A DNA stretch of 64,000 nucleotides from the NCBI GenBank assembly GCA_048268245.1, contig JBLWVX010000002.1, forward strand, positions 32,001 to 96,000, in the 5' to 3' direction. The notes beneath the pieces are model-generated. The model had not been told where the DNA came from. It did no database searches and saw only the letters and a list, made by a program, of their open reading frames with translations. This DNA comes from Arcobacteraceae bacterium. GTDB taxonomy: Bacteria > Campylobacterota > Campylobacteria > Campylobacterales > Arcobacteraceae. The first letter of the stretch is position 1. Every line of letters starts with the position of its first letter. A program made the position numbers and the translations under genes. Of the stretch, positions 29,227 through 32,686 are shown one piece after another.

Positions 29227-29919
29227 TTAATTTTTGATTTTTTTGTTTGTAACTAAATCTGGTCTAAAATATTTTGTCTTGCAAATAGCCAGATTATATT
29301 TTAAGTCGGCTATTTTACTGTGATTTCCCTTTAAGAATTCTTTAATGACACTTAAATTTTGGAAATTTTCAGGCTTTGAAAAAGATGGTGCTTCTAAGAT
29401 ATTATCTTCATAACTCTCCGTTACTAGTGAGTCTGAGTTACCAAGTACTCCATCTACATTTCTCGAAATTGCATCAGCCATAACTAATGATGGCAATTCG
29501 CCACCTGTTAGAATAAACTCTCCTATTGAAAATACTTCATTTGCATATTTTTCAATAACTCTTTCATCAATACCTTCATATCTCCCACTAACAAAAACTA
29601 TATTTTTCTTTTTTGCTAATCTTTTTGCATCATTTTGATTAAAAGGTTTTGCAGCAGCCAAAGGAAAAATAATATAAGCTTCTTCATTTTGCTCTTTGAT
29701 TTTATCTAAGCAATCAAAAAGTGGCTGAGGAGTCATAAGCATTCCAGCTCCTCCACCAACCATTTGTTTATCAACTTTATTATGTTTATTAGTAGTATAA
29801 TCTCTTGGATTATAAAACTCATAGTTAATAAAATTTGAATCAACTGCTCTTTTTAAAATCGAGTCTTGAAAGTATGGTTCTACTAAATTTGGGAAAAGTG
29901 TCACAAATGTAAATTTCAA
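29227..29919 (-). CDS. trmD: tRNA (guanine37-N1)-methyltransferase
   Basis: [27 protein letters not shown]. Confidence 0.97.
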
Positions 29920-30015
29920 AGCAAGCCTTAATTTTTTGGGAATTTTATCTTATTTTAAATTAAGTTTAGTTTTTATTAGCTATACTTTGCCCTTAATTTT
30001 TATGAAAGGATCGTT

Positions 30016-30372
30016 GTGAAGTCACCAAGAGGTTTTGGAAAAAGCTATTTTACATTTGCTAGCATACTAGCTCATAGTGTTCAAAAGACTATTGAAAACC
30101 AAATTACTATTGCGAAAAAGACTTTACGATATAGATCATCTAAAAATGAGGATGAAGTACTAGAAGAGGAACCCCCTGATTTACTTTACACTTTATCTAT
30201 CATTACTAATCAAAATAAAGCTTGTCATTGTGACTGCCACTTTAGGAAAAAAACAAAAGTAGCTATCACTTTATTCAAGTTTATTCCTAGATGTCCATAT
30301 TATACTACTTATTTCGCATTTAGACGAACAGGAGTACACCCTCCACTATTATCTTTAAATTTCAATCAATAA
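30016..30372 (+). CDS. Hypothetical upstream ORF of metE, candidate leader/arrest peptide
   Basis: -10 TATACT 29981-29986, RBS AAAGGA, GTG start; CHCDCH and RRTGVHPP motifs. Confidence 0.65.
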   Translation: MKSPRGFGKSYFTFASILAHSVQKTIENQITIAKKTLRYRSSKNEDEVLEEEPPDLLYTLSIITNQNKACHCDCHFRKKTKVAITLFKFIPRCPYYTTYFAFRRTGVHPPLLSLNFNQ

Positions 30373-30409
30373 ATCATACAAACAAAAATAGAAAATTTAA
30401 GGATAAAGA

Positions 30410-32686
30410 ATGTCAAAAAATTATGTAATAGGATTTCCAAGAATTGGAGAACAAAGAGAGCTTAAAAAAGTTTTAGAGGAGTTTTGGTCAAATAAGTGTT
30501 CATTTGAAAAAGTAGAAGTTGTTGCAAAAGAGTTAAAGCAAAGACACTGGTCATATCAGCAAAAATCTGGAATTGATTTTATTTCATCAAATGATTTTTC
30601 ATTTTATGATAATGTTTTAGATACTTGTGTATTATTAAATGCTATTCCTAAAAGATTTAAAGATTTAGAAAATGAAGAATTATATTTTTCAATGGCAAGA
30701 GGTAATAAAAATAGTGTAGCAATGGAAATGACAAAATGGTTTAATACAAACTATCATTTTATAGTTCCAGAGTTAAGCTTAGAAGATGAATATAAATTAA
30801 ATGCTTCAAAAATCATAAATGAATATAAAGAAGCAAAAGAGTTTGGTTTAAAAACTAAAATCAATATTATAGGTCCACTTACATTTTTAGGATTATCAAA
30901 AAGAGTTGATAATGGTGATGTATATGAATTACATTCTAAAATTCTTCCTATATATAAAGAGTTATTAGAAGAGGTTTCAAAACTTGATGAGAGTGTTACT
31001 GTACAAATTGATGAACCTATTTTAGTAAAAGATAATGAAGTAAAAGTTTTAAGTTTAATAAAACCTACATATGATTTATTAGCAAATGTATCTAATAATA
31101 TTGATATTATTGTTACTACGTATTTTGAACACTCAAATGAAGCTACTAAAATTTTAGTAAATACACCTATTTATGCTTTAGGTCTTGACTTTTTATATGG
31201 TGTAAAAAACTTTGAAGTTTTAGATGATATTTCTAAAAGTGGGAAAAAATTAGTTGCAGGTGTAGTTGATGGTAGAAATATCTGGAAAAACAATATTCAA
31301 AATTCTTTAGAACTGTTAAGTAAAATAAGTAAATATATAAATAAAGAAGATTTAATTATCTCTTCATCTTGTTCACTACTTCATACTCCTTATACACTAA
31401 AATATGAAGAAAAAATGAAAAGTGAAATAAAAAATTGGCTTTCATATGCTTGTGAAAAACTTGATGAGCTAAATTTAATTACAAAAATATTTTTTGAAGG
31501 TGTCAATTCATTAAACGAAATTGAACAAAATGCTTACAATGAAAATATTGAATCTAATTATAATAGATTAAACTCTGAAATTATTCATGATAAGTCAGTA
31601 CAACAAAGAGTTGATAACTTCACAAAGTTAGAAAGAGAGGGCAGATATGAAGAAAGAATTAAATTACAAAAAGAGCTTCTAGGATACGAAGATTTAGCAA
31701 CTACTACAATTGGATCTTTCCCTCAAACTCCTGAAGTAAGAAAATCAAGAAGAGATTTCAAAAAAGGAGAGATTTCAAAAGAACAATACGAACAAGATAT
31801 AAAACAATATATTGATGATTGTATTGCTTTCCAAGAAGAGTGTGGAATTGAAGTATTAGTTCATGGAGAACCAGAAAGAAATGATATGGTTGAATACTTT
31901 GGTGAGCAATTAAAAGGTTATGGTTTCTCTCAAAATGGATGGGTTCAATCTTATGGAAGTAGATGTGTAAAGCCACCATTTATTTATGGAGATATTAGTA
32001 GACCTAAACCTATGACAATTGATTGGATTACATATGCTCAAAGTAAAACAGATAAAATCATGAAAGGAATGCTAACAGGTCCAGTTACGATTTTAAACTG
32101 GTCTTTTGTAAGAGATGATAAGCCAAGAAGTGAAGTATCAAAACAAATAGCAGTTGCACTAAGTGATGAAATTGATGATTTACAAAACGAAGGAATTAAA
32201 ATCATTCAAGTTGATGAAGCAGCCTTTAAAGAAGGTTATCCCTTAAGAGCTGAAAATATTAAAGAGTATGAAAACTGGGCAACAAGAGACTTTAAAATGT
32301 GTGTAAGTACAGCAAAAAAAGAGACTCAAATTCATACACACATGTGCTATAGTGAGTTTAATGACATTATTAAAACAATTGAAGATATGGATGCTGATGT
32401 TATCTCAATTGAGACAGCAAGAAGTGGAAATGAACTACTTAAAATCTTTAAAGAAGTAGGATATAAACAAGAAGTAGGACCTGGAATTTATGATATTCAT
32501 AGTCCTAGAGTTCCAAGTGTAGAAGAAATAAAAAAACAAATAGAACTTTTACTTGAAGTACTACCAAAAGAGCACTTATGGATAAATCCAGATTGTGGAT
32601 TAAAAACAAGAAAATGGGAAGAAGTGAAACCAAGCCTTACAAATATGGTTGAAGCAGTAAAACAAATAAGAAAGGATTATGAATAA
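30410..32686 (+). CDS. metE: Cobalamin-independent methionine synthase
   Basis: GFPRIG, EMTKWFNTNYH, HGEPERNDMVEYF, IHTHMCYSE, NPDCGLKTR. Confidence 0.98.
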   Translation: MSKNYVIGFPRIGEQRELKKVLEEFWSNKCSFEKVEVVAKELKQRHWSYQQKSGIDFISSNDFSFYDNVLDTCVLLNAIPKRFKDLENEELYFSMARGNKNSVAMEMTKWFNTNYHFIVPELSLEDEYKLNASKIINEYKEAKEFGLKTKINIIGPLTFLGLSKRVDNGDVYELHSKILPIYKELLEEVSKLDESVTVQIDEPILVKDNEVKVLSLIKPTYDLLANVSNNIDIIVTTYFEHSNEATKILVNTPIYALGLDFLYGVKNFEVLDDISKSGKKLVAGVVDGRNIWKNNIQNSLELLSKISKYINKEDLIISSSCSLLHTPYTLKYEEKMKSEIKNWLSYACEKLDELNLITKIFFEGVNSLNEIEQNAYNENIESNYNRLNSEIIHDKSVQQRVDNFTKLEREGRYEERIKLQKELLGYEDLATTTIGSFPQTPEVRKSRRDFKKGEISKEQYEQDIKQYIDDCIAFQEECGIEVLVHGEPERNDMVEYFGEQLKGYGFSQNGWVQSYGSRCVKPPFIYGDISRPKPMTIDWITYAQSKTDKIMKGMLTGPVTILNWSFVRDDKPRSEVSKQIAVALSDEIDDLQNEGIKIIQVDEAAFKEGYPLRAENIKEYENWATRDFKMCVSTAKKETQIHTHMCYSEFNDIIKTIEDMDADVISIETARSGNELLKIFKEVGYKQEVGPGIYDIHSPRVPSVEEIKKQIELLLEVLPKEHLWINPDCGLKTRKWEEVKPSLTNMVEAVKQIRKDYE

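Follow-up and report, generated by a model that had tools for sequence, protein, structure and literature searches.

We analyzed a 64,000-nucleotide (nt) stretch of an Arcobacteraceae genome (GenBank assembly GCA_048268245.1, contig JBLWVX010000002.1, positions 32,001 to 96,000 of the forward strand), referred to below as the window; all coordinates given here between 29981 and 32686 refer to that whole stretch. The subject is a small open reading frame (ORF) at 30016–30372, here called the leader, which sits between the divergent gene trmD (29227–29919, minus strand) and metE. An initial annotation of this DNA had singled the ORF out as a candidate arrest leader for metE. The locus contains the following features:

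29981–29986, plus strand: –10-like hexamer TATACT, read from the sequence and lying in a block kept in close relatives; the consensus promoter scan calls neither it nor any full promoter upstream of the leader ORF.
30005–30010, plus strand: Shine-Dalgarno (SD) sequence AAAGGA of the leader ORF; related loci have an AAGG(A)-type site 5–9 nt before the start.
30016–30372, plus strand: leader ORF of 118 amino acids (aa), with a GTG start, codons at 30016–30369 and a TAA stop at 30370–30372; it is under purifying selection and belongs to a conserved family.
30031–30075, plus strand: N-terminal motif G6-F-G-K-x-Y-F-T-F-x-S-I-x-A-H20, a less hydrophobic homolog of the signal peptide found in BtuB-like TonB receptors.
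30163–30177, plus strand: acidic run and first Pro-Pro, E50-E-E-P-P54; in metE-type members both prolines, P53 and P54, reach at least 90% conservation.
30223–30240, plus strand: Cys/His motif C70-H-C-D-C-H75, at a fixed distance from the C-terminal Pro-Pro across the family.
30274–30303, plus strand: conserved block F87-K-F-I-P-R-C-P-Y-Y96; I90 and C93 are invariant, and P91, R92, P94 and Y96 are at least 90% conserved.
30313–30345, plus strand: putative arrest segment F100-A-F-R-R-T-G-V-H-P-P110, with the P109-P110 codons at 30340–30345.
30346–30369, plus strand: non-conserved tail L111–Q118; tails are variable across the family.
30349–30363, plus strand: 5' (anti-SD) arm of a predicted helix with the metE SD region, 9–23 nt after the first Pro codon.
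30373–30409, plus strand: spacer of 37 nt from the leader stop to metE, A-rich and G-poor in base composition.
30391–30406, plus strand: 3' arm of the helix predicted by RNA folding, which holds the metE SD AAGGA (30399–30403).
30410–32686, plus strand: metE, cobalamin-independent methionine synthase of 758 aa (Meth_synt_1, E 2e-118; Meth_synt_2, E 8e-149).

The elements that the initial annotation had read from the letters are all there: a –10 hexamer and a ribosome-binding site belonging to the ORF itself, the CHCDCH motif at residues 70–75 some 35 residues ahead of the Pro-Pro at 109–110, a second Pro-Pro motif EEEPP at 50–54, and 118 residues without an internal methionine, the last being true of the window ORF and a trend rather than a rule across the family. 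The distance to P109 is 35 residues from C74 and 39 from C70. As also claimed, only 37 nt separate the leader from metE, and the terminator scan finds no terminator-like site between the two. Assembled contigs from public RNA libraries overlap parts of the leader (e.g. 30034–30293) and parts of metE, none of them bridging the two genes, and these overlaps could include DNA carry-over and carry no information on transcription, its starts or its levels.

The leader belongs to a previously undescribed protein family in Campylobacterota. A protein search yields 385 homologs among 386 candidates; the matches listed are all unnamed or annotated as "hypothetical protein", without a Pfam domain in any of them, and the genera named are Arcobacter, Halarcobacter, Malaciobacter, Aliarcobacter and Sulfurimonas. 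Scanning one genome per species brings up relatives in 329 stretches, Sulfurovum, Sulfurospirillum and Sulfuricurvum included, and a profile search of 1.8 billion representatives finds 157 proteins at E ≤ 1e-3. Within these searches the family is confined to Campylobacterota. Pfam and NCBIfam hold no family for it and give only a chance match to DUF3997 (E 0.012), and a protein atlas has no usable match. A full-text literature search found no description of the leader family or of a peptide-based B12 leader; supplements lay outside that search, and the gene lists of PMC12992588 might include such neighbors, though the motif queries used there differ.

The window ORF is a genuine coding gene, far beyond chance. 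A DNA search of 41 related genomes gives matches in 22, from which 20 loci were retrieved, 15 of them with metE; in all 15 the leader frame is open, alignable and has the same motifs, which bears out the conservation that the initial annotation had made the condition of its proposal. In the codon alignment the first, second and third positions have entropies of 1.12, 0.99 and 1.56 bits, the third being the most variable, and the ratio of nonsynonymous to synonymous substitution rates (dN/dS) is 0.03–0.33 in the 12 closest pairs (dS 0.09–0.26). Over the 3' 200 nt DNA conservation reaches 70–79% across genera, and homology at the protein level persists at 25–30% identity, beyond the range of alignable DNA. 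Distant members keep the N-terminal sequence M-[KR]-x-P-K-G-F-G-K-N-Y-F-[ST]-L-x-A-I, an acidic stretch, the motif C-H-C-N-C and a C-terminal x-P-P, with C-terminal variants such as SGIHPP, TGLAPP and NSxISPP.

Gene contexts were counted in the best 80 of the 329 species loci and in the 30 best plus 20 further loci from a profile search of 401 genomes of the phylum, 202 of which have leader-profile matches; roughly 220 loci were seen in the context analysis overall. In 79 of the best 80 species loci metE lies directly downstream on the same strand, and the contig of the 80th ends 32 nt past the ORF. The 30 best profile-search loci comprise 17 leaders before metE and 13 before a TonB-dependent receptor (eight receptors identified by tblastn, four by NCBIfam and that of L138 by near-identity to the N-terminus of the one in L134). 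All 20 further full-length matches precede metE, including second copies in six genomes that have a receptor-type leader. Pooled and de-duplicated, the set holds 138 members: 124 directly before metE, 13 before a BtuB-like TonB receptor and one at a contig end. No member stands apart from a target gene among these 138, the one at the contig end being untestable. In six genomes there is a pair of diverged paralogous leaders, with one copy ahead of the receptor and the other ahead of metE; such pairs, each member bound to its own target, are hard to explain by a trans-acting factor. The gene order receptor-leader-metE is found in three genomes.

A metagenome scan seeded with nine receptor-type leaders (the closer alignment, A5; the distant alignment, A2, was too divergent to serve as seed) adds 80 loci, with 39 leaders before receptors (29 by tblastn and ten by Pfam Plug/barrel domains), 33 before an ORF of 377–487 aa, some of them cut, and eight at contig ends. 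Twelve of the 33 ORFs match porin families (OprD, BBP2 or Porin_4) weakly, and an ORF of 225–227 aa comes after the porin-like ORF in 19 of 20 mapped metagenome loci. The leader family precedes classical B12-regulon genes: metE, BtuB-like receptors with btuF, btuC and cob genes, and porin-like genes in cob clusters. In one receptor-type locus (L135, G159:C8) no stop codon closes the leader, which continues in frame through the TonB receptor as a single frame of 723 aa; the signal peptide that belongs to the receptor is retained within it.

The link to vitamin B12 comes from the genes that accompany the leaders. For seven of eight receptors tested the best NCBIfam match is TonB-B12/BtuB, and matches of the same proteins to ZnuD have E values of 1e-8 to 1e-12, compared with 1e-61 to 1e-88 for BtuB. 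Downstream of the receptors lie genes for BtuF-like binding proteins, an ABC ATPase and BtuC/FhuB-like permeases, and in single receptor loci CobD with a ThrB-like kinase, or CobQ, or a weak CobT-like gene. Beside porin-type metagenome loci NCBIfam identifies CobQ, CobD and a ThrB-like kinase (L225), CobB (L257) and a CbiK-like protein (L239); no cob genes were found in this way beside L253 and L263. Since the other targets are BtuB-like receptors, BtuF/BtuC-like proteins and cob genes, the gene context likely narrows the signal of the leader to a corrinoid or B12, away from zinc or the sulfur amino acids.

The first 55 or so residues of the leader, its N-terminus, share homology with a further set of TonB receptors (620–690 aa), over the signal peptide and acidic linker of the latter. 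These receptors adjoin metH or lie within 7 kb of it in 14 genomes (G101, G378, G065, G105 and ten others), which suggests that they are metH-linked B12 receptors. The homology also suggests, from sequence comparison, that the leader may have started as a duplication of the 5' end of a btuB-like receptor gene. For the leader's N-terminus the maximal Kyte-Doolittle hydropathy over 12 residues is 1.24 and 0.67, compared with 1.92 and 2.27 for real signal peptides.

Cobalamin riboswitches (RF00174) were found in none of the genomes searched, which were the genome of the window itself (0/1), five leader-bearing genomes (0/5) and 151 genomes of a phylum sample (0/151); the same search was positive in seven of 14 control genomes. 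The Rfam scan of the leader region at E ≤ 10 returned only a chance match to a snoRNA, in agreement with the initial annotation, which had seen no recognizable riboswitch. In 20 related loci with long spacers the Rfam scan at gathering threshold found no cobalamin riboswitch and only thiamine pyrophosphate (TPP) riboswitches in two Sulfurovum loci (L048:2548–2664 and L079:2778–2883, minus strand; 75 and 74 bits), a few hundred bases upstream of the leader. These two hits show that riboswitches can be detected in these genomes. The leader shares with RF00174 the regulon (metE, btuB, btuFCD and cob genes) and the position directly upstream of it; it differs in being a translated ORF under protein-level selection, whereas RF00174 is a structured RNA.

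The distribution of leaders follows that of MetH, which is present in the window's own genome. In the 401-genome sample, MetH is found in 22 of 23, 32 of 34, seven of eight, 19 of 19, four of four and 19 of 20 genomes of the families that hold full-length leaders (f1, f15, f17, f20, f4 and f6, respectively). The families with metE and without MetH have no full-length leaders: in f11 (metE 122/158, MetH 0/158) there are only weak leader-profile matches, the best with E 2e-6 to 8e-4, and in f13 (metE 7/7, MetH 0/7) no genome of seven has a leader. As these families are clades, the pattern amounts to few independent events. In the genus g38 (L179–L183), which has metE and MetH but no leader ORF, the 5' region of metE is short and, some 60–90 nt upstream of the gene, carries a conserved palindrome (ATACATATTGTAT-like) immediately ahead of a TATAAT box. 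This arrangement resembles the operator of a protein regulator, which would give the phylum a third means of metE control.

The geometry of the leader points to arrest in cis. Across 32 distant members the only invariant columns are Y11 and the C-terminal Pro-Pro, which ends at residue 105–114. The Cys motif is C-H-C-(D/N)-C (CxCxC), with a further Cys 19–23 residues on; its first Cys precedes the Pro-Pro by 39 aa in 105 of the 118 metE-type members in which the motif was located, and by 36 aa in 12 of 13 btuB-type members. The EEEPP-type motif is absent in btuB-type leaders. At the C-terminus, 86 of 124 metE-type members have RRTGVHPP; other motifs are TKTGLAPP and LNNAISPP, and none is RAPP. 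The blocks FKFIPRCPYY and FAFRRTGVHPP occupy the last 24 residues up to the Pro-Pro. The dimensions of the ribosomal exit tunnel would place about the last 24 residues inside the tunnel, with the Cys motif just emerging. After the Pro-Pro comes an unconserved tail of 0–36 aa (median 4), and in two receptor-type members and one metE-type member the frame stops right after the Pro-Pro. In L006 and L027 the leader frame extends past the metE start, with tails of 28–36 aa. Start codons of metE-type leaders are GTG in 55, TTG in 35 and ATG in 34, and internal methionine is absent in 87 of the 124, where the expected probability is 0.10. AlphaFold2 with the family alignment predicts isolated helices, among them a confident long helix at residues 14–43, and no compact fold (predicted local distance difference test score 64, predicted template modeling score (pTM) 0.26).

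In the window, the predicted pairing of 30349–30363 with 30391–30406 has an energy of –8.2 kcal/mol (z –2.2), and eight of 200 shuffles are as good. The G residues of the metE SD are predicted to be paired (unpaired probability below 0.2) in 72 of 77 short-spacer metE loci, compared with 35% of 83 control genes that share this SD core, and the pairing partner lies 0–24 nt after the first Pro codon in 64 of the 77. An ungapped helix of at least 8 bp covers the SD in 55 of 112 loci; shuffled sequences give 12.4%, and internal segments of equal length 20 of 112. A locus's own SD pairs better than cross-locus combinations in 75 of the 112, and by eye (alignment A3) the complementarity is locus-specific, the helix arms shifting register between loci; L086 has a 12-bp duplex of –12.3 kcal/mol. 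The spacers of the 77 loci consist of 54% A, 14% C and 2.9% G, with no G at all in 38 of 73, compared with 11.1% G in ordinary 5' regions of the window's genome (1001 crudely defined regions). Rho is present in that genome. Longer distances of 100–373 nt between leader and metE occur in L010, L014, L017, L065, L092 and others. Some of these long spacers contain GC-rich hairpins, for example directly 3' of the leader stop in L014; they have no Rfam match and may be inserted repeats or attenuator or terminator stems.

We consider it an even call that the leader is a cis-acting arrest leader, analogous to CruR of Bordetella pertussis (compared below), that responds to a corrinoid and precedes B12-linked genes. 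A ribosome translating the leader would arrest at the invariant C-terminal Pro-Pro. At that point the conserved 20–25 residues before the Pro-Pro would fill the exit tunnel, and the CxCxC motif, 36–39 residues upstream, would just have come out. The stalled ribosome would allow the downstream gene to be expressed; in metE-type loci it would do so by covering RNA that is otherwise paired with the metE SD, and the G-poor spacer may at the same time be protected from Rho. Plentiful corrinoid would relieve the arrest, either by binding to the emerged Cys/His motif or through a partner protein; the ribosome would leave, and metE or the uptake genes would be switched off. We infer this direction of control from the targets: high B12 should switch off metE, uptake and cob genes, and the ligand should for that reason relieve the arrest and not induce it. 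The leader would in this way functionally replace the cobalamin riboswitch that was not found in the phylum sample. A more specific version, in which the nascent leader itself binds the corrinoid through its CxCxC/His motif on leaving the tunnel and so releases an intrinsic (V/I/L)(H/A/S)PP arrest, is tentative, and we think it rather doubtful. The initial annotation had proposed a nascent-peptide sensor controlling metE in cis. That part gains comparative support from the invariant Pro-Pro, the fixed Cys-to-Pro-Pro spacing, the strict adjacency, the paralog pairs and the SD pairing, while the choice of signal, left between zinc, cobalt or B12, and cysteine or methionine, is shifted by gene context in favor of a corrinoid over zinc or sulfur amino acids.

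Several observations weigh against a corrinoid-responsive arrest leader. The receptors score 44–297 bits, which is under the curated NCBIfam cut-off for BtuB; heme-type families are their next-best matches, and one binding protein matches IsdE best. The leader ORF is missing from one genus whose genomes have metE as well as MetH. Pairing of the SD gives a moderate signal: upstream-shuffled controls pair it in 66% of cases too. The margin in duplex energy is modest, with means of –7.9 kcal/mol for a locus's own pair, –6.7 for internal segments, –6.0 when pairs are formed across loci and –5.5 after shuffling. In a MAFFT alignment of 12 loci, RNAalifold neither recovered the anti-SD helix nor found compensatory pairs, and 36 receptor- or porin-type loci show no enrichment of SD pairing (four of 36 with at least 8 bp, compared with 6.8% of shuffles). 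As the enrichment was seen in metE-type loci only, the readout of the arrest may differ between targets or depend on Rho. The Pro-Pro context (V/I/L)(H/A/S)PP is neither RAPP-like nor proven as an arrest motif. All 110 residues up to the Pro-Pro are conserved, which fits a trans-acting protein as well. The genomes are related and many of the metagenome loci have a source in common with others, so that the counts are not independent.

The whole-length conservation, which includes the N-terminus, is what a small trans-acting protein would show if it were co-transcribed with its partners as a corrinoid-binding or escort protein, a metallochaperone or a regulator, with the Pro-Pro as a structural or binding motif. 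The Cys/His motifs suit ligation of a metal or corrinoid, 105–118 aa is an ordinary size for a small protein, and the helix at residues 14–43 is predicted with confidence. We nevertheless regard this explanation as unlikely: each of the two diverged paralogs in a genome is tied to its own target, none of the 138 members was found away from a target gene, only Y11 and the Pro-Pro are invariant while the tail after the Pro-Pro may have any sequence and any length, and the model lacks a compact fold (pTM 0.26). Start codons that are GTG or TTG in 90 of 124 cases also count against it, as does a metE SD predicted to pair with RNA beside the Pro-Pro codons. A cis-acting arrest leader could also respond to something other than a corrinoid, such as zinc, cobalt, the thiol or redox state, or methionine, S-adenosylmethionine or homocysteine. 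CxCxC with its fourth Cys resembles a metal site, MetE needs zinc, ZnuD is among the weak receptor matches, and metE-type leaders avoid Met codons well beyond expectation. These signals appear improbable as the trigger, as targets of the BtuB-like, BtuF/BtuC-like, CobD, CobQ, CobB and CbiK-like kinds are not expected to respond to methionine or zinc, the ZnuD matches are far weaker than those to BtuB, and the leaders track the presence of MetH.

A leader that senses no small molecule, acting as a constitutive coupling device or a Sec-type monitoring substrate, would explain why its N-terminus is homologous to a receptor signal peptide and why the RNA that masks the SD would be opened by any ribosome in passing. 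This is less probable again, given that the N-terminus is much less hydrophobic than real signal peptides, that metE is unconnected to export, and that plain coupling needs neither a fixed Cys-to-Pro-Pro spacing nor a conserved Cys motif. As for an RNA element that went unrecognized, for example a divergent riboswitch with an incidental open frame, its location would match that of B12 riboswitches in other phyla, and the 70–79% DNA conservation across genera in the 3' 200 nt could be read in this way. We give this explanation hardly any weight, because the substitutions are of protein type, with the highest entropy at third positions and low dN/dS, the frame is open in all members, protein homology extends to where the DNA is unalignable, and Rfam gives no match. 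A classical attenuation leader peptide was ruled out, as there is no run of Met codons (most metE-type leaders have none) and no terminator-like site.

The closest analogue of the proposed corrinoid-responsive leader is CruR (DUF2946), a copper-responsive upstream ORF of B. pertussis. There, copper is perceived by a Cys motif of the nascent chain, which relieves arrest at RAPP and lets Rho end transcription (PMC9426467). The two leaders are of similar size (about 110–145 aa), and both begin with a stretch akin to an export signal, which in the family described here means homology to receptor signal peptides. Both also keep a constant spacing between a conserved Cys motif and a C-terminal Pro-Pro, and AlphaFold gives little structure for either. 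Further common points are G-poor and unstructured RNA before the next gene, a TonB-dependent transporter among the targets, and the proposed logic in which the ligand relieves the arrest and the operon is turned off. The differences are CxCxC here and CXXC in CruR, (V/I/L)(H/A/S)PP here and RAPP in CruR, and targets that are metE and cobamide uptake or synthesis genes here and copper genes in CruR. The leader family further differs by its Cys-to-Pro-Pro spacing of 36–39 aa, by an N-terminus that has lost the hydrophobicity of a signal peptide, and by its occurrence only in Campylobacterota within the searches made. The DUF2946 Pfam model has no match at E ≤ 1 to the window protein and none to the 32 distant members. 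With neither a DUF2946 match nor a RAPP-like motif, the leader family is an analogue of CruR, which the initial annotation had cited as established background, and not a member of its family.

Arrest leaders that unmask a downstream SD include ErmCL and MifM. SecM, which acts on secA, is described in a study of arrest peptides (PMC10987492) and is another. The leader resembles this group in that, in metE-type loci, the downstream SD is predicted to be paired with RNA that a stalled ribosome would cover, and in having a C-terminal arrest motif, here putative, followed by a dispensable tail. It differs from the group in having no sequence similarity to these peptides and a target that is no secretion gene, and in a leader-metE helix that is AU-rich and weak (–8.2 kcal/mol), has no covarying consensus and is not enriched in receptor- or porin-type loci. 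The RAPP-like (RQH) arrest peptides carry a C-terminal [R/Q/H]-[A/G]-P-P or a close variant (PMC10987492), and TonB-related genes downstream are noted in work on such peptides (PMC10987492, PMC12992588). The leader family is alike in its C-terminal x-x-P-P with a small residue (A/S/H) before the prolines, placed close to where a small ORF ends and followed by a regulated gene. At the position two residues ahead of the first Pro, the leader family has V/I/L/T and RAPP-like peptides have R/Q/H, and the published motif queries (RAPP, RGPP, AAPP, AGPP etc.) would miss the family.

Bacterial B12 regulation is regarded as the domain of riboswitches. The phylum sample of 151 genomes is without a cobalamin riboswitch, and a conserved translated leader stands before the same regulon instead. 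If the more specific version holds, with the nascent leader itself binding the corrinoid, this would be the first peptide-based, ribosome-coupled sensor of vitamin B12, replacing the cobalamin riboswitch across a phylum. To our knowledge the list of arrest peptides relieved by a ligand is very short, CruR with copper being the example that we can name; if the reading as a corrinoid-responsive arrest leader is confirmed, the leader would add a second ligand class, a large cofactor. It would also offer a new arrest motif for structural work on the ribosome, explain the switching between MetE and MetH in relatives of Arcobacter, Sulfurimonas, Sulfurovum and Sulfurospirillum, and supply an annotation rule for hundreds of "hypothetical proteins".

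Some of the genes beside the leaders are worth recording in their own right. Inside the operon of L134, which contains the receptor, btuFC-like genes and cobD, lies a YcaO-family gene (L134:2062–3681) that matches the model of an S12 methylthiotransferase accessory protein at E 1e-145, below the cut-off of that model. ORFs of 540–546 aa in L136, L138 and L140 were grouped with it. A YcaO-family gene would not be expected in the company of cobamide genes. ORFs of about 141 aa and about 190–196 aa recur beside receptor-type leaders (L131–L143), and ORFs of about 141 aa and 225–227 aa beside porin-type leaders (L223–L261). No Pfam or NCBIfam family was found for the recurrent small ORFs beside cobD and cobQ, with Pfam empty for those of 141, 155 and 190 aa; these ORFs are candidates for unknown parts of cobamide salvage or uptake.

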